The notes under the pieces: model-generated | Seen by the model: the letters and a program-made list of their open reading frames with translations, nothing else | Told to the model about the DNA's origin: nothing | The model's database searches: none | Program-made: the position numbers and the translations under genes | IMG/VR virus record: IMGVR_UViG_2923302340_000005 | Span: 1 to 35,430 of that record | Length of the DNA: 35,430 nucleotides | From: a virus | Lineage: Duplodnaviria > Heunggongvirae > Uroviricota > Caudoviricetes | Direction: 5' to 3' (one strand) | Part shown: piece by piece, positions 3,525 through 12,613 of the stretch | Layout of the letters: each line of letters opens with the position of its first letter | Numbering within the stretch: the stretch's first letter is position 1

Positions 3525-3787
3525 CCATTCTGGACTACATCGCTACTCATCCGGGGTGTAGCGGCGGAGAGATCGCCGCAGCACTGAATACTCCAACCAC
3601 AGCCATTAATGCTGAGTTACGCCAACTTTGGCGCGGCGGCTTAGTCATCAGAACAAACCGCAGCACAGGTGGTCGCGCTCGCAAAACTGGAGGCCAGGCT
3701 TCTTACCACGTAAACCCGATGCCGTTCGGGTGTAGCAATCCACTTACTCACATGTTTAACCAGCTACTGAAGGAAGCCAGAACATGA
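3521..3787 (+). CDS. Putative winged-helix DNA-binding protein
   Basis: 88-aa ORF coupled to its neighbours; sequence pattern (ILDYIATHPGCSGGEIAAALN...LRQLWRGGLV) resembles a wHTH regulator. Family assignment is by eye only. Confidence 0.45.
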   Translation: MTILDYIATHPGCSGGEIAAALNTPTTAINAELRQLWRGGLVIRTNRSTGGRARKTGGQASYHVNPMPFGCSNPLTHMFNQLLKEART

Positions 3788-4083
3788 GCACCATCAACCA
3801 CCAGAAGCTACGCGAACTGGCATTTGCCCTGCAACGAATGGCAACACCTCAAAAATTACTGGCATTTCGCGCAATGCTCTCGCCGTCTGCTGCGCTGGCA
3901 TTGCTGGATGAGCTGGAGCACGCCAGAACCACGGCTCCTGCCATTCGCCTGACGCTCCATCATGAAATCGCTGATTTCTGCGCGACATTGGAGGTGCCAG
4001 GCGAACCGGAAACGCCGGAAGCAATACAGCAAGAGCTGCTGCAACGTATTGACAAGGTTTTTGATTTTTTTCTGAACCAGTAA
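3784..4083 (+). CDS. Ea22/Ead-like N-terminal domain protein
   Basis: 99 aa; shares the N-terminal signature MSxINxQxLRELA and ALLDELE with the two genes at 9325 and 9921. Confidence 0.5.
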   Translation: MSTINHQKLRELAFALQRMATPQKLLAFRAMLSPSAALALLDELEHARTTAPAIRLTLHHEIADFCATLEVPGEPETPEAIQQELLQRIDKVFDFFLNQ

Positions 4084-5080: not shown

Positions 5081-7909
5081 ATGACGGCAGAGTACATCAG
5101 GGACTGGCAACAACCGCGCCACGCAGTGGGACGTGAAGGAACGGGGATCCCCGTTCCTGAATCTGCGCTTTCCTCCTGGCTGGATGCCTACCGGGCAGAG
5201 AACGAGCGCCGCCAGGAAATGGCTGATGCGGCGTTCTCCGCCACGCCGCTGGGCAACCTGATTAATAAAAGCCTGGATGCACAGGAAAAACAGGACAAAA
5301 CCATCACACTGGCAGGAGACGCCAGAAAACAGGCACGCGGCGCGGTGGATGAAGCCATGGCCTCGCTGCGCCTGCTGCCGTCCTATCTGCGCGATCCGCT
5401 TATTCGCCACCTCTCCTTCCTGCGCAAAAAACAGGAAGTCGATCGCCGGAAAGGCAAAAAGAGCTGGCAGGCTGAACGCTACGCGCGCGGAACCCTGCGC
5501 AAAATATTCGAACGTCTGGACCGCACCGACCACCGCTGGCTGACACCGGGTTATCGCTCCCTTGCCGGACGCGAACGCCTGGATGATTTGCTTTACCTGC
5601 CGCAGCTCAACAAGCACCAGATACAGACGCTGGCCACCATGACGGCGGCGATGTTCAGCAGCACCTTCGAAAAACTCTGCGATGGCTTTGGCGCGACTGA
5701 TGGCGAACTGACCATGGATGTAACGCTGAAGGCGTATCAGATGCTGGCCCGCATGGCGTTACACCTGCACGCCATGCCTCCACATTATGACGCACTGACA
5801 ACAGACAAAGACCGGAGGAACGAACCGGACACGGAGCTGCTGCCGGGCGCAATCCTTCGCCTGACCTGTGCGGAATGGTGGAAACGCAAACTGTGGCTGT
5901 TACGTTGCGAGTGGAGAGAAGAACAACTCCGCGCCGCCTGTCTGGTTTCCAGAAAAACATCACCCTATCTGAGCCAGGACGCGTTAAGCGAGTTTCGCGC
6001 ACAGCGCGAGAAAACCCGCGACTTCCTGAAGAGCTTCGAACTGGAAAACGAAGACGGCTTCACGATTGATCTCGAGACAGTGTATTACGCGGGAGTAAGT
6101 AACCCGGTTCACCGTAAGGCAGAAATGATGGCCACCATGAAGGGACTGGAACTTCTGGCCGAAGCCCGTGGCGACAGAGCGGTGTTTCTGACTGTCACCT
6201 GCCCGTCAAAATACCACGCAACAACGGAGAACGGTCATCCGAACCCCAAATGGAACGGGGCCACCATGCGCGACTCCAGCGATTACCTGGTTAACACGTT
6301 TTTTGCGGCGGTCCGCAAGAAACTGAACCGCGACGGCCTGCGCTGGTATGGCATCCGCACGGTGGAGCCTCACCATGACGGCACCGTGCACTGGCATATG
6401 ATGGTCTTTGCTCATCCGGAAGAAATCGACAGCATCGTGGCCATCACCCGCGATATTGCCATTCAGGAAGACCGCCACGAGCTGGGCAATGATATTACTC
6501 CGCGCTTTAAGGTGGAGTATGTCGACGGCTCAAAAGGCACGCCAACCAGCTACATCGCCACCTACATCGGAAAGAACCTGGACAGCCGCGCCGTGGATGG
6601 CATCGACCCGAAAACGGGCAAACCACGCGTTGACCACGAAACCGGAAAATCAATGGCCGAGAGCGTGGAACGCGCCATCGGCTGGGCGCGCCTTCACCGG
6701 GTCCGCCAGTTCCAGTTCTTTGGTATCCCCTCCCGTCAGGTGTGGCGTGAACTGCGTCGCCTTGCCAGCCAGATGGCACGCAACCCCGAAGGCCCGCAAC
6801 GGCTGAAGGATGACGCAATGGATGCGGTTCTTGCTGCCGCTGATGCCGGATGTTTTGCCACCTACATAGAGAAACAGGGCGGCGTACTTGTTCCACGCAA
6901 AGACTACCTGATTCGCACCGCCTACGACCTCGCAGATGAGCTGAACGATTACGGCGAACAGAGCGTACAGATTTACGGGATCTGGTCGCCACTCATCGGG
7001 GAATCCTCCCGTGTGTGCACGCATCCGGATAACTGGAAGCTGGTAAGACGCAAACCGGAAGCGGAAGACAGCGCCCGCGAAAATGGTTTTGACCTTCAGG
7101 GCGGCCCTGCCGCCCCTTGGACTCGTGGCAATAACTGTCCCCGTGTACAGGAAACGGACAACAACGGGATAGAACAGCCGGAAGAACGGCCAGCACCGTG
7201 GCCGCAGCTCCCTGACGGCGTTGAAGTGAACGAATGGATGCGCTCACTGAAACGGCACGAACGCCGGGCGCTGATGCGTTCGCTTCGGCTTCGTGACAAA
7301 CAGGCAAAAAACAGCAGTGATGAAATGCAGAGCTGGACACAGAGCCGCAAACAGCAGCGGCCTTTGCCTGATAACCACGAATTACTCGCTAAAGAATGGC
7401 GGGAATCTGCCGAATCTCTCGGCCTGCATATCGGTGAACAGCAGATGCAGCACCTGTTACGGGGCGGCAGCCTGTACGTTGACGGCAGCATCATTGCACC
7501 GCAGGGATTTGAAATTGTACGCAAACCGGATACCCGCCCGGACAGCCGAATCACGCAGCTCTGGCAGCGCCTGAGCCGTAATCACGGCGTAAGCAGCACA
7601 GAGATCCGCCATAACCCGGTCGCCAGCTATCTGGAACAACTGGGGGCATCAGACCCCGAAGCCGCCGCACGTCTGGCATCCACACTTCAGCAGGACCAGA
7701 ACACCATGAAAACCCCCGTTACCGTGCTTTCTGACATGCTGCGCGCCATCCGTGACACAGAGCACGCACAGAGAATCAGTGAAACCACTGAACGCGCCCA
7801 CCGCAAAGCAGACCTGCTGCGGGGTAGCCTGACCAGTGGAAACAAAAAACAGACAGAAACGGGACTCACAAATCTCGTAAATGAGCAAAAAACGCGCCAT
7901 AAAACATGA
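5081..7909 (+). CDS. A: Rolling-circle replication initiator, P2 gpA-like (HUH endonuclease)
   Basis: 942 aa; HUH-type metal motif HWHMMVF and paired catalytic tyrosines SYIATYIGK, characteristic of P2 A / phiX174 gpA Rep proteins; carries a long charged C-terminal extension relative to P2 A. Confidence 0.85.
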   Translation: MTAEYIRDWQQPRHAVGREGTGIPVPESALSSWLDAYRAENERRQEMADAAFSATPLGNLINKSLDAQEKQDKTITLAGDARKQARGAVDEAMASLRLLPSYLRDPLIRHLSFLRKKQEVDRRKGKKSWQAERYARGTLRKIFERLDRTDHRWLTPGYRSLAGRERLDDLLYLPQLNKHQIQTLATMTAAMFSSTFEKLCDGFGATDGELTMDVTLKAYQMLARMALHLHAMPPHYDALTTDKDRRNEPDTELLPGAILRLTCAEWWKRKLWLLRCEWREEQLRAACLVSRKTSPYLSQDALSEFRAQREKTRDFLKSFELENEDGFTIDLETVYYAGVSNPVHRKAEMMATMKGLELLAEARGDRAVFLTVTCPSKYHATTENGHPNPKWNGATMRDSSDYLVNTFFAAVRKKLNRDGLRWYGIRTVEPHHDGTVHWHMMVFAHPEEIDSIVAITRDIAIQEDRHELGNDITPRFKVEYVDGSKGTPTSYIATYIGKNLDSRAVDGIDPKTGKPRVDHETGKSMAESVERAIGWARLHRVRQFQFFGIPSRQVWRELRRLASQMARNPEGPQRLKDDAMDAVLAAADAGCFATYIEKQGGVLVPRKDYLIRTAYDLADELNDYGEQSVQIYGIWSPLIGESSRVCTHPDNWKLVRRKPEAEDSARENGFDLQGGPAAPWTRGNNCPRVQETDNNGIEQPEERPAPWPQLPDGVEVNEWMRSLKRHERRALMRSLRLRDKQAKNSSDEMQSWTQSRKQQRPLPDNHELLAKEWRESAESLGLHIGEQQMQHLLRGGSLYVDGSIIAPQGFEIVRKPDTRPDSRITQLWQRLSRNHGVSSTEIRHNPVASYLEQLGASDPEAAARLASTLQQDQNTMKTPVTVLSDMLRAIRDTEHAQRISETTERAHRKADLLRGSLTSGNKKQTETGLTNLVNEQKTRHKT

Positions 7910-7958
7910 AGTGCGCACAAAACAGGCAAAAGCGGGATTTGAAAATCCCGTAAACGAT
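7857..7958. promoter_or_regulatory. Imperfect direct repeats straddling the A stop; candidate parC-like site or operator
   Basis: gggactcacaaatctcgtaaatga (7861-7884) and gggatttgaaaatcccgtaaacga (7934-7957) match at 18 of 24 positions; the second contains the perfect palindrome gggattt..aaatccc. Confidence 0.4.
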
Positions 7959-7985
7959 TAATTAATCAACATAAGGAAAAGCGAC

Positions 7986-8945
7986 ATGAAAATTTGTATC
8001 GACGACGGCTCCACCAACATCAAGCTGGCATGGACTGAGAACGGCGAACGCCGCAACGCCATCAGCCCGAACAGTTTCAAGTCGGAATGGTCTGCGCCGT
8101 TCGGTGGCACGCAGCCCGCGAACTACATGCTTGATGGCGTGCGCTATGGTTTTGATCCGGTCAGCGATCGCTTTGTCCAGACGACCGACACGCAATACCA
8201 GTACAGCGATGTGAATGTAATCGCCATTCACCACGCGCTGGTCAAATCAGGCATCACACCACAGGAAGTGGATGTGGTTGTCACCCTGCCACTGAGCGAA
8301 TATTTCGACACAAACGCACAGCCGGACATGGCCAACATCAACCGCAAAAAAGCGAACGTTATGCGCCCGGTGGAGTACCAGAACGGCAAAGCATTCACTA
8401 TCCGTAACGTACGGGTTATGCCTGAATCCATTCCGGCTGGCTTTAAAGCACTGGCTGACATGAGTCCGTTTGAATCCCTGCTGATTGTGGATTTAGGCGG
8501 AACCACGCTGGATGTGGCAAAGGTTCAGGGACAACTGGCAGGTATCAGCCAGGTGTTTTGCGATCCACACGTAGGCGTTTCCCTGATGGCCGATGCCGTA
8601 CTGTCGGTGATGGCTACTAACGGTATGCGTACCAGCCACCACATCGCCAATACCATTATCGAACATCGCCATGATGAAGCCTGGCTGCGCCAGCACATCC
8701 ACAATGACGCGCATTACGCCAGCCTGATGGCGGTTATTCGTGAAAAGGAAGAAACACTGAAACAACGCGTGATCCGCGCACTGGCGGGTTTTTCGGGTTA
8801 CGGGCGGGTGATGGTTGTCGGTGGCGGGGCGGAGATTGTGGCACCCGCTATCCGCGAAGCCTGCGGAGTTAATGCGACTTTCATCGCGGACGGGGTGCCA
8901 CAGTTTGCTCTGGTTAATGGGCTGTACGCAATGGACAAGGAGTAA
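7986..8945 (+). CDS. parM: ParM/StbA-like actin-type segregation ATPase
   Basis: 319 aa; strong resemblance to plasmid R1 ParM as recalled from memory along the whole length (IDDGSTNIKL, ISPNSFK, YSDVNVIAIHHAL, VMPESIPAG, LIVDLGGTTLD, SGY..VMVVGGGAE, LVNGLY). AAGGA RBS. Confidence 0.85.
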   Translation: MKICIDDGSTNIKLAWTENGERRNAISPNSFKSEWSAPFGGTQPANYMLDGVRYGFDPVSDRFVQTTDTQYQYSDVNVIAIHHALVKSGITPQEVDVVVTLPLSEYFDTNAQPDMANINRKKANVMRPVEYQNGKAFTIRNVRVMPESIPAGFKALADMSPFESLLIVDLGGTTLDVAKVQGQLAGISQVFCDPHVGVSLMADAVLSVMATNGMRTSHHIANTIIEHRHDEAWLRQHIHNDAHYASLMAVIREKEETLKQRVIRALAGFSGYGRVMVVGGGAEIVAPAIREACGVNATFIADGVPQFALVNGLYAMDKE

Positions 8946-8949
8946 ACCA

Positions 8950-9261
8950 ATGACGACACCAACCAGACGGATAAGTTTCTATCTGAAGCCCGCCGCCGTC
9001 AAGAACGAAAGCGAAGCATGCGCCTGGCTGGACAGCCTTACACCAGAAGCCCGCAAAAGCGGCCAACGCGTGGCTTTTCTGGCCGGGCTGGCACTTCTGA
9101 AAATGAATCCGGCAGAGGCTTACCGACTGGCTGCATGGGCTGATGGCGAGGCGTTATCAGTGACACAAACCAGGACAGAACGCCCCGTGCCACAGCCAGC
9201 ACCAACCGCACAGATAACCAGTCAGATGGCCGGAAATATCCGGGCGTTATTTCCCGAATAA
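8950..9261 (+). CDS. parR: ParR-like adaptor protein (putative)
   Basis: 103 aa directly downstream of the parM-like gene; AAGGAG 7 nt upstream; resembles R1 ParR (RRISFYLKP..., VAFLAGLAL, C-terminal LFPE). Track ORF starts further upstream inside parM. Confidence 0.65.
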   Translation: MTTPTRRISFYLKPAAVKNESEACAWLDSLTPEARKSGQRVAFLAGLALLKMNPAEAYRLAAWADGEALSVTQTRTERPVPQPAPTAQITSQMAGNIRALFPE

Positions 9262-9268
9262 CACAACG

Positions 9269-9288
9269 TCAGGGCGAGTTCGCCCTGA
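9269..9288. repeat. Perfect palindrome TCAGGGCGA-GT-TCGCCCTGA, left bracket of the Ea22-like pair
   Basis: Read directly; shares its stem sequence with the palindrome at 10474-10499 on the other side of the pair. Confidence 0.6.
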
Positions 9289-9324
9289 TCTCCACCTCAG
9301 AACATAAACAAGGAGACCGACTTA

Positions 9325-9924
9325 ATGAGCGAAATCAACTATCAGGCACTGCGTGAGTTAGCAAAACAGGCAACACAGGGCGAATGGGTCGCATTTATTT
9401 CGCCGGGCAAATACGGCACGTACGCCGTGCACACACCAGGAGATAATCATCACGGAGATATTGTCGACTGGCCTGGATTCGACGAACAGAAAAACGCAGA
9501 GAACAACGCTCGTTATATCGCAGCTTTCAACCCTGAAGTAGTGCAGGCTCTGTTGGATGAACGAGAAGCCCAAAGCAAACGCATTGCAGAGCTGGAGGCT
9601 AATTTCACGGAGCTGGCAGCGGAGAATGCCGCAATGAAGCTGTTTATCAGGGGCAGTTGCTATGTATTTGATGGAGAGCAGGATGAAATATCTGACGCGT
9701 ATATCTGCGCAACAGACGGAGGAATGCCACAAACCCCAGCCACCGACGCTTTTCTGGCTGAAGTACGGGCGCAGGGCGTGGAGATGCTGGCAAAAAATCA
9801 TCAGAGTATCGTCAATGCACTTAAGGGAGATTCTTTATTTTCTGATGATGAATACCGACATGCAGCTATTGTTTCCGCAGCTGTATATTTCGCCGCAGAG
9901 CTTCGCAAAGGAGGCAGCCAGTGA
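9325..9924 (+). CDS. Ea22/Ead-like family protein, paralog 1
   Basis: 199 aa; N-terminus MSEINYQALRELAKQA and ALLDEREAQSKRIAELE coiled-coil motif; AGGAG RBS. Confidence 0.55.
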   Translation: MSEINYQALRELAKQATQGEWVAFISPGKYGTYAVHTPGDNHHGDIVDWPGFDEQKNAENNARYIAAFNPEVVQALLDEREAQSKRIAELEANFTELAAENAAMKLFIRGSCYVFDGEQDEISDAYICATDGGMPQTPATDAFLAEVRAQGVEMLAKNHQSIVNALKGDSLFSDDEYRHAAIVSAAVYFAAELRKGGSQ

Positions 9925-10460
9925 GCAAAATTGACTATCAGGCACTACAAATGGCAGCAGAACGTGCAATTCCGGCAATGGAACGCCTGTTAATATTGCC
10001 AGTTGATGATGATTTGTTAAGCGAACAGGAACTTAAAGATTACGGTGTGGATATTGACGCGATCAACACCTTCAGAATTCTGGCTGGACCGGAAGACATG
10101 CTGGCACTGCTGGATGAACTGGAAACAGCAAAAAAACGCATCGCTGAACTGGAAAAAATCGCCACTGACTATGCACTTAAATTCCAGAAAGCACAGGACG
10201 CATTAAAGTATGCCGCTTTGCTGCATAGCAGGACGGCGCAACAAACAAATAATTTTGCAGTATCGCTTCCGGACATAAGCGAATATTTCATTAATGACGT
10301 ATTTCAGCCCTTGCGATACGAGCGGGATGTTGAAAGAGCCATCATAAAGGCTGGCGGAAAAGCATTGTGGCAGGAGAAGCACGAGGAAAGAACGCATCAG
10401 CTAAGTGATGTAAATAGTGGATGGTTATGCCCACTGACAGAAGGTAAAAAGAACACCTGA
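9921..10460 (+). CDS. Ea22/Ead-like family protein, paralog 2
   Basis: 179 aa; GTG start overlapping the upstream stop (GTGA), AAGGAGG RBS; N-terminus MSKIDYQALQ and ALLDELETAKKRIAELE; divergent C-terminus. Confidence 0.55.
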   Translation: MSKIDYQALQMAAERAIPAMERLLILPVDDDLLSEQELKDYGVDIDAINTFRILAGPEDMLALLDELETAKKRIAELEKIATDYALKFQKAQDALKYAALLHSRTAQQTNNFAVSLPDISEYFINDVFQPLRYERDVERAIIKAGGKALWQEKHEERTHQLSDVNSGWLCPLTEGKKNT

Positions 10461-11026
10461 TTTCCTCTCAAACCAGGGCGATAATCGCGCATCGCCCTGC
10501 TGCACAATAGTGCACAAATTTGCACAATTTTTTTGAACGACTTTTTGCCCTTCCAGCCCGCGTGGCGGCTGGATCCGTCAAGGATCCGTGCGTGCACAAA
10601 AAAACGCGTTTTTTCTGCGCGCAGGTGACGGGGGAACAGCCCGCGCTTCAGGGGGTAAATAGCATTCCCTGAACGATGTCGCAGAGACACAACAGAATGG
10701 CCATATTTCTCACGCTGAGCATGAAAAAGGCGTGAGGGCTTTTGATTTGATGGGGTGAAAGGTAAGGCCGTCAAAATCGCACTGAGGCAGCGAGGACATA
10801 CAGTCAACGTGGTGGGATTGCGTAAGAGTCTGACCGTCGATGGTGGCGATAAACTGGAAGGCGTCGTGAAATTATCTGATTGATACAGGAGCTGGAGAGC
10901 CGGGGCATAAATTTTTTATGCCCCGGCGAAGCAGCAGACAAGCGAAGCGCGTCAGTGATGCGGCACCTTGCCGACCACACTTCATAAGTGCAAAATACGA
11001 GCAAAGAAATCAATGGAGGCTGTTTT
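10461..11026. other. Structured noncoding region; candidate cos packaging site
   Basis: No credible ORF on either strand. Contains palindrome CAGGGCGAT / ATCGCCCTG (10474-10499), TGCACAA three times at exact 10-bp spacing (10501-10527) plus a fourth at 10593, palindromes AAAAAACGCGTTTTTT (10599-10614) and CTGCGCGCAG (10615-10624), a GACGGGGGAA segment (10627-10636) reminiscent of the P2/186 cohesive-end sequence, and a 12-bp perfect stem CCGGGGCATAAA / TTTATGCCCCGG (10900-10926). Confidence 0.4.
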
Positions 11027-11551
11027 ATGGTCATTAATTACAAGCAGTTACGAGAAAAACGAGATCAGGTAAAGGAGAGTTTTCGCCGCAATGAAGACCT
11101 GACCCCACTTGTACGAATTGCCCAGGGAATTGTTGATGCTTATGAAATCTCTCTGGAGCTGCCATCACAGACATGGACGGATAGCGACGGTAATCGCCAG
11201 CATTACGTTTCATGCGGACTGGAAACAACTGAAGGGTTTCGCAGAATGCCTTTATCTCAGATCCCTGCCGCTACCCCCAAAGCAAGGGGCGGCAATGATG
11301 AGCGAAAACTGATTTTCAGCATTGAGACAGTGGTTGACGACACACCTGGCGAAGTCGCCTTCGTGCATACTCCTGTTTCGATCGCAATGTATAACGATGA
11401 AATACAGGTTCGCGTTAATAATAATATCGTGCCACTTAAAGAAGGTAATTCACCATACACCACCGTTTGTGAAGCCATTCAATATTACGTTCTCTCTGAA
11501 ATTGATAATCTCAAGCCTGACGGCACCCAGAAAATGGTTCAACTCTGGTAA
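11027..11551 (+). CDS. Hypothetical accessory protein
   Basis: 174 aa from ATG 11027 with GGAGG 7 nt upstream; no recognisable family; convergent with portal Q. Track ORF starts at GTG 10988. Confidence 0.55.
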   Translation: MVINYKQLREKRDQVKESFRRNEDLTPLVRIAQGIVDAYEISLELPSQTWTDSDGNRQHYVSCGLETTEGFRRMPLSQIPAATPKARGGNDERKLIFSIETVVDDTPGEVAFVHTPVSIAMYNDEIQVRVNNNIVPLKEGNSPYTTVCEAIQYYVLSEIDNLKPDGTQKMVQLW

Positions 11552-11556
11552 AAAGG

Positions 11557-11583
11557 ACAGCCCCAATCACGGGGCTGTTTTTT
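11557..11583. terminator. Hairpin plus T-run between the convergent accessory gene and Q
   Basis: ACAGCCCC-AATCAC-GGGGCTGT followed by TTTTTT on the plus strand; the Q stop codon lies in the loop. Confidence 0.55.
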
Positions 11584-12613
11584 CATCAAGAAGAGCATAA
11601 GAATTAAAACGGATCACCTCTTCGCCAAGCCAGTCATTGATGTGCTTCATGGCCTCCATAACGGGCATCAGCTCGTTAATTGCATAAACCCGCGCGGCCT
11701 TCTCCACATCACCAAACGCACTTTTTTCGCCCGGCATCGCCCCCATCAGTTGCGGTGGAACACGGTGCGCAGCCAGCACATCATCACGGGATGCCGCCTT
11801 AACATTCATGAACTCATCTTTTGCGGTGATCTGCTGGAACGGCAAAATTTGCACCCCCTCTTTCCCCCCGTTGGGCGCATGGATGAGCACGTTTTTAAAC
11901 GCACCACCACCACGCGCACCCTGTAACGTTTCTTTCAGGGAGTCCATGCTTTCGCGGTTTACCTGCGCTGCACCGATATAGATGATGCACCCGGCGTGGG
12001 ATCCATTGTCGTAATACAGTTTTCTGAACATGTCCGCCGAATGAGACAGGCTGGCCGAGAGTAATGCGCCAAGATATTCCGGCATGCCGTAAATTTCCTG
12101 GTTAATGTCCGGATTCATCAGGTGGCACACTTTGCCAGGGCGAAACTGAAACGCATCCTTGCCATCCTGCACATACCACCATGATTCAAGATCGCTTCCG
12201 CGTCGCATGTATTTCGCCAGGGCGTGCCGTAATTTAAGCGGTTCGCCGAGCATATTGCTTCGAAGCTCAAGAAATGCGTTACCGAACACAAACCAGTCCA
12301 GCGCCAGCGCCGAGAAATCCTGCCGGGAAAGCAGCGGGTGCGGAATATAGCAACCGAGCAATACATTGCGCTTAAAGTAAAGCGCAGACTGATGCCAGGA
12401 CGTTTGCCGGGCAGCTCTTGCCAGACCGTACCAGTCCACCGGGGTTTCATACCACCGCCCGTTATCAGCACAGTACATATTGTCCAGCAAATCATGCCCG
12501 GTCAGGCGATAAGGACCATCAAATGTGAATGCACTGAGCGACGATTCTTTCCTGAGCGCATCAGCGAGATCAATGCGTGAACTCATGCGCACTTTTTTAT
12601 TTTTTCTGCTCAT
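11567..12613 (-). CDS. Q: Portal protein, P2 gpQ-like
   Basis: 348 aa; size, position and leftward orientation with P as in P2; start overlaps the P stop by 1 nt. Confidence 0.85.
   Translation of the reverse strand: MSRKNKKVRMSSRIDLADALRKESSLSAFTFDGPYRLTGHDLLDNMYCADNGRWYETPVDWYGLARAARQTSWHQSALYFKRNVLLGCYIPHPLLSRQDFSALALDWFVFGNAFLELRSNMLGEPLKLRHALAKYMRRGSDLESWWYVQDGKDAFQFRPGKVCHLMNPDINQEIYGMPEYLGALLSASLSHSADMFRKLYYDNGSHAGCIIYIGAAQVNRESMDSLKETLQGARGGGAFKNVLIHAPNGGKEGVQILPFQQITAKDEFMNVKAASRDDVLAAHRVPPQLMGAMPGEKSAFGDVEKAARVYAINELMPVMEAMKHINDWLGEEVIRFNSYALLDEKTAP

Follow-up and report, generated by a model that had tools for sequence, protein, structure and literature searches.

In the early protein Ea22 of phage lambda and of the Shiga toxin (Stx) phages, a short N-terminal part precedes a long coiled coil and a variable C-terminal domain, and variable C-termini carried on a conserved start and coiled coil already belong to its published description (PMC7093339, PMC10834534). 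The protein is a tetramer with a prolysogenic effect that favors host survival, its mechanism and partners being unknown (PMC7093339, PMC10834534), and lambda ea22 counts among the first genes to be transcribed (PMC10834534). P2-like phages have a genetically variable hotspot, enriched in antiphage genes, in the interval that separates the replication gene gpA from the portal gene gpQ and adjoins cos (Rousset 2022, PMC9122126). This interval holds old and tin in P2 and comes in 1,650 distinct gene arrangements in E. coli (PMC9122126). Here, we analyzed a stretch of viral DNA of 35,430 nucleotides (nt) (IMG/VR record IMGVR_UViG_2923302340_000005, whole stretch, hereafter the window), in which two tandem genes of the Ead/Ea22 family occupy this interval.

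The window is an integrated P88-like prophage (Xuanwuvirus, P2 family). Escherichia phage P88_4B11 (Xuanwuvirus, Peduoviridae) and numerous P88-like prophages have matching flanks, and the gene order of the window comprises gpA (5081 to 7909), parM, parR, the two Ea22 genes, and a cos-side noncoding region, followed by the portal (gpQ, 11567 to 12613) and terminase genes on the opposite strand. The same order, from gpA through parM, parR, cargo, cos, and portal to terminase, is found in related P88-like prophages. The Ea22 pair lies between gpA and gpQ, adjoining cos, in a P2-family phage, and the locus belongs to kinds already known, with a family (Ea22) and a location (the P2 cos-proximal hotspot) that have both been described before. 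With moderate confidence, and by analogy with the characterized members of the family, we suggest that the tandem genes of this slot encode early-type accessory coiled-coil proteins that would modulate the choice between lysis and lysogeny. The most useful results of the comparison are that the conserved motifs of the family coincide with recombination breakpoints and that two matching hairpins, located on either side of the pair, are independent gene-end elements.

Two translationally coupled Ea22-family genes

The first open reading frame (ORF1; 9325 to 9924, plus strand) encodes 199 amino acids (aa) from an ATG preceded by AAGGAG at 9310 to 9315, and the second (ORF2; 9921 to 10460, plus strand) encodes 179 aa from a GTG preceded by GGAGG at 9910 to 9914. 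The stop codon of ORF1 and the start codon of ORF2 overlap as GTGA (9921 to 9924), and the two genes are translationally coupled. Both proteins match the Pfam profile PF13935 (Ead_Ea22), whose gathering score is 27 bits, with scores far above this value, i.e., 90.2 bits (E 2e-25) for ORF1 and 78.7 bits (E 8e-22) for ORF2, and ORF1 also matches phrog_368 (E 1e-54). A first-pass annotation of the window had described two coupled genes of the Ead/Ea22 family with a shared N-terminal module and unrelated C-termini, and our searches confirmed both the arrangement and the family membership.

The motifs MSxI[ND]YQAL and ALLDE..RIAELE are common to the two proteins, whose mutual alignment is limited to the N-terminal ~98 residues (36% identity, E 1e-7). 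At the DNA level, we could recognize two direct repeats, namely, 9326 to 9373 versus 9922 to 9969 (73%) and 9532 to 9596 versus 10089 to 10153 (72%). The C-terminal halves are unrelated, giving no mutual alignment, and when the isolated modules were compared with Pfam, only the N-terminal modules matched Ead_Ea22, the C-terminal halves remaining without a match. In ORF1, an N-terminal head (GEWVAF...HTPGD...) is followed by a predicted coiled-coil helix (residues ~70 to 111) and by a helical C-terminal module ending in ...AAELRKGGSQ. For ORF2, the prediction is a helical head and a coiled-coil helix (residues ~57 to 105), after which come a small C-terminal module of alpha/beta type and a tail without ordered structure. 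The 5,320 homologues of ORF1 form a patchwork family.

The comparison with lambda Ea22 upheld the similarity of the N-terminal module and defined its extent. Lambda Ea22 aligns with the ORF2 family alignment over residues 1 to 68 only (hhalign probability 98.2%, E 4.6e-14), and BLASTP against ORF1 aligns residues 1 to 21 (E 4e-6). Homology to the characterized lambda protein is thus real, but it is confined to the head and the entry of the coiled coil. What the genes of the window share with lambda and Stx Ea22 is the start motif MSEINxQALRE, the LLDE entry into the central coiled coil, a predicted plan of a short head, a long helix, and a variable C-terminal domain, and probably the position as early-operon genes. 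They differ from them in lying in a P2-family myovirus, in the gpA-gpQ slot behind parMR rather than in the lambdoid exo-xis region, in their number (two tandem copies and a truncated third), and in their C-terminal modules, which are unrelated to the lambda C-terminal domain (no match in a sequence search of the PDB).

The truncated third module (99 aa; 3784 to 4083, plus strand) is located in the early operon, where the first-pass annotation had already placed a third copy. The product shares PHROG profiles with ORF1 and ORF2 (phrog_250, E 1.3e-7; phrog_368, E 2.2e-5; it also matches phrog_4144), aligns with the ORF2 family alignment over residues 1 to 49 (hhalign probability 95%, E 2.7e-8), and retains the start motif and ALLDELE. 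However, its Pfam score of 20.7 bits (E 6.5e-4) is below the cutoff of PF13935, and the RIAELE coiled-coil motif is absent.

In an otherwise identical relative (GCA_965257435.1, 3405 to 4014), ORF1 is split into fragments of 48 and 83 aa next to an intact ORF2, so that the prophage, at least, can do without ORF1.

Cargo of the slot and exchange of modules

The interval from parR to cos is the variable cargo slot of the prophage, within the known gpA-gpQ hotspot. We compared it across 84 P88-like loci with both flanks (IMG/VR loci retrieved via ParR, E. coli genomes, plasmids, and loci retrieved via ORF2), to which all slot counts given below refer. The slots fall into 35 length classes, from 84 to 2,329 nt, and carry no gene (near-empty slots), a single Ea22 gene, an unrelated 174-aa gene followed by an Ea22 gene, a ClpX-type zinc-finger gene followed by small genes, or a DUF4760 gene on the opposite strand. 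Ea22-like ORFs, all 34 of them on the plus strand, are missing in 58 slots; 18 slots have one and 8 have two. Of the slots with two, seven are the window and loci retrieved via ORF2, and the eighth is a frameshifted single gene.

As for the sibling prophages, three of the IMG/VR P88-like contigs (L074, L021, and L016) carry defense candidates in the same slot, i.e., an AbiLi/AbiLii-like pair (E 2e-27 and 6e-5), an RmrA-like gene (E 3e-35), and PDC-M04A (E 3e-35). Two of these three cargos lie on the opposite strand, and the third begins after a noncoding gap of ~200 nt.

The two-gene allele is rare, being found in 5 of 5,426 complete E. coli genomes and in no case among the 69 IMG/VR slots that have both anchors. 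This rarity, together with the broken ORF1 of the relative described above, would suit the hypothesis that recombination among Ea22 genes produced the pair as a selectively neutral passenger without a function of its own. We regard this hypothesis as very improbable, since both reading frames of the window are intact and their starts coupled, and since the family is maintained in thousands of prophages. Moreover, the index of a public assembly collection lists the identical ORF2 protein in 152 blocks, and in all 23 ORF2-identical contigs examined it stands in a P88-like context behind a 199-aa ORF1 (disrupted in one).

The exchange of parts within the pair emerges from the comparison with the sister alleles. 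The sister phage P88 (Xuanwuvirus P88_4B11, NC_049391) shares with the window the layout of gpA, parM, parR, first hairpin, Ea22, second hairpin, TGCACAA repeats, and cos, with flanks at ~93 to 96% identity; it differs in having one Ea22 gene of 196 aa, provided with a zinc-ribbon head, where the window has two genes. A blastn comparison with this single-gene P88 allele (CP061244, L003) returned homology only at 9203 to 9356 and 10102 to 10560. The homology stops at codon 11 of ORF1, right after MSEINYQALRE, and restarts at LLDELE of ORF2. The segment on the plus strand that sets the two-gene allele apart (9357 to 10101, 745 nt, corresponding to the rest of ORF1 and the head of ORF2) replaces ~200 nt encoding the zinc-ribbon head in P88, and both of its breakpoints fall within conserved motifs of the family.

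A different breakpoint was found with respect to the alleles in which the first gene is the unrelated 174-aa one (L002, L039, and L085), where homology begins at 9906, in the ...KGGxQ*/GGAGG/GTG junction. Here, the end of ORF1 (LRKGGSQ*) itself encodes the GGAGG and the GTG of ORF2 (9906 to 9948, plus strand), and the same joint is present in relatives. Throughout the family, in fact, ORF1-type patchwork proteins nearly always end in ...ELRKGGNQ, which encodes the ribosome-binding site and the start codon of the next gene. The conserved MSxI[ND]YQAL start and the ALLDE..RIAELE motif coincide, as far as the aligned alleles indicate, with recombination breakpoints, and a third joint, ...LRKGGxQ* overlapping GGAGG and GTG, connects an upstream gene to the downstream Ea22 gene. 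It is possible to hypothesize that the conserved motifs would serve both as features of the protein, i.e., its start and the nucleus of its coiled coil, and as patches of homology for recombination.

The first-pass annotation had envisaged a conserved N-terminus with swappable C-termini. The strong modularity is borne out, but the picture is too simple, because family alignments reveal that the N-terminal globular heads are swapped too and that only the short joints are constant; the ORF2-type C-terminal module, for instance, is joined to at least 5 different N-terminal heads in homologues. Recombination at gene-boundary "linkers" is an established source of mosaicism in temperate coliphages, known from the lambdoid phages. 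The window resembles that system in that modules are exchanged at breakpoints matching short sequences conserved at the starts and ends of genes, and departs from it in that two of the joints lie inside coding sequence and are conserved protein motifs as well.

Furthermore, the pieces of the window genes are 84 to 94% identical to genes of phage-plasmids of ~47 kb and ~96 kb, of Stx phages, and of P1-like phages. The ~96-kb phage-plasmid that we examined carries two Ea22-like genes in an array of coupled small genes, and it follows that tandem or multiple Ea22 paralogs are ordinary for the family. The Yersinia phage that we examined has the matching gene in a coupled array of the same sort, whose genes are annotated as hypothetical proteins only.

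Hairpins and borders of the slot

The pair is flanked by two palindromes, already noticed in the first-pass annotation, whose coordinates and matching stems we confirmed. Hairpin 1 (9269 to 9288, TCAGGGCGA-gt-TCGCCCTGA) has a predicted RNA folding energy of -16.4 kcal/mol (z -4.3), and hairpin 2 (10474 to 10499, CAGGGCGAT-aatcgcgc-ATCGCCCTG) provides the 9-bp stem of a 91-nt segment (10455 to 10545) folding at -22.1 kcal/mol (z -3.3), so that both form stable stem-loops, with the same CAGGGCGA/TCGCCCTG stem. The window contains 8 copies of CAGGGCGA, a number that no shuffle reached, where 1.3 would be expected, and four of the eight copies are those of the two hairpins. An origin as dispersed elements of the repetitive extragenic palindromic (REP) type was rejected: there are two hairpins in the window, and the exact hairpin-1 20-mer, nearly absent outside its own context, occurs 7 times in 185,579 species genomes, one of the seven being in the same context, in a Salmonella P88-like prophage. 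An Rfam search over 7800 to 11700 at E <= 1 returned no RNA family.

In the first-pass annotation, the matching stems had suggested a self-contained cassette, to be looked for as a block present or absent in related prophages, or a shared regulatory site, and the comparison of the slots largely refutes the cassette. Scored by the exact pattern, 54 slots have the left hairpin only, 7 both, 3 the right one only, and 20 neither, a few additional right-end copies carrying single mismatches. The CAGGGCG...CGCCCTG hairpin stands directly after parR in 61 of the slots, irrespective of the cargo, and with opposite-strand cargos it is the adjacent terminator-like element. The right-end hairpin, in turn, is restricted to loci whose last gene has the ORF2-type 3' module, among them some with a quite different left hairpin (L002, L039, L044, and L096), while other cargos bring other terminators, the commonest being AAAACGCCCTCTTCCAGGGCGTTTATTT, a textbook intrinsic terminator; in a more distant P2-like phage (L098), the ORF2-like gene is followed by an unrelated hairpin. 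A synthetic hairpin-to-hairpin query, mimicking deletion of the block, found no one-piece match in the 5,426 E. coli genomes, among which no allele is missing the unit in its entirety. In 362 of these genomes, the two flanks are present and enclose cargo, and the best 30 of the 362 all carry a single Ea22 gene. Because the hairpins assort independently and no empty allele runs from hairpin to hairpin, they are separate gene-end stem-loops and not the ends of a mobile cassette: hairpin 1 belongs to the 3' end of parMR rather than to the Ea22 cargo, and hairpin 2 is the 3' stem-loop of the ORF2-type C-terminal module.

The identity of the stems over 8 to 9 nt, with partly similar flanks (CAAC..CAGGGCGA on the left, TCGCCCTGCT on the right in P88), is nevertheless more than chance, and it could recall a cassette moved by hairpin-specific recombination of the integron attC or IS200/IS605 kind. 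Two loci would speak in this sense, namely, the recombinant L087, whose junction lies at the hairpin, combining the CATC-loop hairpin typical of ClpX-type cargo with a leader typical of Ea22 cargo, and the near-empty L007, described below. We assign scarcely any probability to such a mechanism, given that hairpin 1 remains in place with unrelated cargos, that genome searches did not find the hairpin-flanked unit elsewhere, that there is no recombinase in or beside the unit, and that the breakpoints with respect to the sister alleles lie within genes and not at the hairpins, in addition to the assortment and the absence of an empty allele already described.

The near-empty slot of L007 (NZ_CP128931.1, ~100 nt from parR to TGCACAA) corresponds to the L006 type (NZ_CP173472.1, allele with a 135-aa gene) deleted between two copies of CATCAGGGCGC, one of which is the 5' arm of hairpin 1 and the other lies within the 3' end of the cargo gene. 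In the DUF4760 allele, a TGCACAA motif like that of the right border directly follows hairpin 1. This motif, the L006-to-L007 deletion, and the L087 recombinant point to short-homology recombination at the slot. The most economical explanation of the shared stem would be a common origin, recombination at the slot, or duplication of one hairpin during cargo exchange, rather than a site for a dedicated recombinase.

As for what the hairpins do, neither is followed by a U-run on the plus strand, where the nearest T-run is at 10528 to 10534, after the TGCACAA repeats, and for this reason they were rejected as plain intrinsic plus-strand terminators; hairpin 1 is terminator-like on the minus strand only. 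Its loop varies among AGTT, AACT, CATC, TATC, and TATT, and compensatory changes of the stem occur in two lineages (CAGGGCAtattTGCCCTG and CCAGGGCGGaaaCCGCCCTGG), and therefore hairpin 1 appears to be under selection as a structure. Between two DUF4760 alleles (L037 and L004), the loop is AACT in one and AGTT in the other, the whole palindrome being the exact reverse complement, a difference that could stem from two point changes or from inversion of the hairpin. We suggest that the hairpins may act as gene-end RNA stem-loops that stabilize the 3' end, cause a partial stop, or terminate transcription from the opposite strand, with a shared terminator then located by cos.

On the left, the slot begins at the stop codon of parR. 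Ahead of the first cargo gene, a conserved leader with the ribosome-binding site (GAACATAAACAAGGAGA..., 9300 to 9324, plus strand) is common to different first genes, and GAACATAAACAAGGrGrC precedes Ea22-type and ClpX-zinc-finger-type first genes alike. On the right, all 84 slots end exactly at an invariant border next to cos (10501 to 10535, plus strand), which consists of three TGCACAA copies at 10-bp spacing and a run of seven T; the P88_4B11 record ends ~24 nt beyond it, at cos. Within this border, GTGCAcaaattTGCAC with the T-run was flagged as terminator-like, and the TGCACAA repeats could represent a recognition element for terminase at cos, a parC centromere for ParR, or part of a shared terminator (GTGCAcaaattTGCAC and T7). 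A fourth TGCACAA copy (10593 to 10599) lies 66 nt further on.

Other features of the region lie outside the slot. Between cos and the portal gene, a 187-aa ORF (10988 to 11551) matches phrog_5091, of unknown function, and has no match in Pfam, PADLOC, or NCBIfam. Since in most relatives the portal gene comes ~490 nt after the slot, the window has ~600 nt of extra cargo here, in a second variable position beyond cos as seen from the slot, where some relatives have a different gene of 167 or 174 aa. A perfect 13-nt inverted repeat with a 3-nt spacer (10899 to 10927, GCCGGGGCATAAA / TTTATGCCCCGGC) is kept in relatives upstream of the portal-side genes and is probably a bidirectional terminator. 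To the left of the slot, a complete type II partition pair (7986 to 9261) is present in this P2-family prophage, in addition to a tyrosine integrase gene (1 to 1023). The pair comprises parM (7986 to 8945, plus strand), an actin-like plasmid segregation ATPase and the conserved left neighbor of the slot, which is annotated as ParM in relatives and whose identical gene in related loci matches Pfam StbA_N/ParM_N, and a parR/stbB-type partition adaptor of 103 aa (8950 to 9261, plus strand; PF10784 Plasmid_stab_B, E 7e-24), annotated in relatives as a 312-nt gene. The short sequence upstream of parM (7909 to 7986, only 77 nt) contains no obvious iteron array and one small hairpin.

Putative role of the pair and implications for the Ea22 family

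None of the searches returned an enzymatic domain, a defense-model match, or a recognizable fold for either protein (Pfam, PADLOC, NCBIfam, PDB, and BFVD). In particular, the PADLOC defense models gave no match for ORF1 and only E 0.041 (CARF3) for ORF2, NCBIfam gave none for the two proteins, and the PDB sequence search with ORF2 found nothing. The AlphaFold2 monomer models are of low confidence, with a mean predicted local distance difference test (pLDDT) score of 62 for ORF1 (helices at 70 to 111, 138 to 166, and 176 to 194) and 68 for ORF2 (a long helix at 57 to 105, then the small C-terminal module), and the fold searches with them, conducted twice against the PDB and once against BFVD, gave no significant match, the best (E 0.5 to 1.2) being generic helical hairpins. 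The structure prediction of the C-terminal halves, proposed as a check in the first-pass annotation, yielded no fold match.

A weak similarity of ORF1 residues 86 to 159 (9580 to 9800) to the C1 domain of class III adenylyl cyclases (PDB 1cjk and relatives, E 0.018) was also considered. The stretch includes F..LAAEN...I.G.CY, but the metal-binding, catalytic Asp of the IGD motif is missing, ORF1 having RGS in its place, and since neither Pfam nor the fold searches support it, we judged the similarity to be due to chance.

Because the pair lies on the early-operon strand behind the conserved leader and ribosome-binding site, and because a scan with the sigma-70 consensus found no sigma-70-like site between parR and ORF1, it is probably read through from parMR or from the early operon. 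The two proteins would probably form coiled-coil oligomers, with exchangeable modules at head and tail for binding to partners from the host or the phage, and no catalytic activity would be expected of them. By analogy with the Ea22 of lambda and the Stx phages, they may bias the lysis-lysogeny decision toward lysogeny and host survival.

Some considerations weigh against this reading. The functional analogy refers to an N-terminal homology of ~70 residues, and the C-terminal modules, unlike those of lambda, may be what determines function. The promoter scan covered the sigma-70 consensus only. The failed fold searches weigh little, the models being of low confidence. The breakage of ORF1 beside an intact ORF2 in GCA_965257435.1 means that the pair need not act together, and the identity of the hairpin stems over 8 to 9 nt, with their partly similar flanks, is accounted for by inference only. 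The slot is, moreover, a proven defense hotspot, in which the siblings carry AbiL-like, RmrA-like, and PDC-M04A genes.

A rival reading takes the two genes as an antiphage or superinfection exclusion unit, in which an Ea22 scaffold would be fused to variable sensor or effector modules, as the first-pass annotation had proposed. The position in the cos-proximal gpA-gpQ hotspot, home of old, tin, and many validated systems (PMC9122126), the defense genes at the same place in sibling P88-like prophages, and the extreme shuffling of modules, which fits an arms race, are all consistent with it. We nonetheless consider it unlikely, and the searches give the proposal no support: neither protein matches a PADLOC model, and the C-terminal modules, of 60 to 90 residues, have no Pfam domain or fold match. 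No promoter of their own was found for the genes, whose leader is common to other cargo genes, whereas the defense cargos of the siblings are more autonomous, being on the opposite strand in two cases and set off by the gap in the third. Moreover, the characterized family members act on the lysis-lysogeny choice of the phage itself (PMC7093339), ORF1 is disrupted in one relative, and Ea22 genes are common in the early-gene arrays of lambdoid and P1-like elements, outside any defense hotspot. The window shares with the P2-like hotspot (PMC9122126) the position between gpA and gpQ next to cos, the very diverse content (35 length classes in the 84 slots), and the recognizable defense genes of its siblings, but its own cargo has no defense signature and resembles read-through early genes rather than an autonomous, constitutively expressed defense module.

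It is also conceivable, albeit clearly improbable in our judgment, that the proteins are early-expressed factors of counter-defense or host takeover, with swappable heads on a coiled-coil scaffold that would neutralize host or competitor proteins. The early-operon strand with its probable cotranscription, the early transcription of lambda ea22 (PMC10834534), the lack of a catalytic domain, and the modular diversity could be explained in this way; however, no family member has been shown to inhibit a defense system, and two-hybrid screens gave no partner for lambda Ea22. A broader and rather unlikely hypothesis would see in the Ea22 proteins a modular coiled-coil platform for conflict between phages, by exclusion of competitors or neutralization of host defenses, with modules exchanged via built-in joints. 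In that case, the tandem pair in the P2-type defense hotspot would illustrate a functioning two-component form, in which the proteins might associate as a hetero-oligomer via their common ALLDE..RIAELE coiled coil. If the pair did act in phage exclusion or counter-defense, a role of which we found no indication, this would provide a function for a large family.

The preferred interpretation remains that of accessory coiled-coil proteins acting on the lysis-lysogeny choice, and the locus is informative about the family to which they belong. Ea22-like genes are among the commonest unexplained genes of enterobacterial prophages, with thousands of homologues found. The slot illustrates how such a family diversifies, with modules, and even whole extra genes, swapped at joints located at the start codon, at the entry of the coiled coil, and at the stop/start overlap, in exchanges that span P2-like, lambdoid, and P1-like elements. 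Furthermore, two kinds of cargo can be distinguished within a known defense hotspot, i.e., read-through arrays of small early-type genes and autonomous defense genes, a distinction that is useful for the mining of such hotspots.

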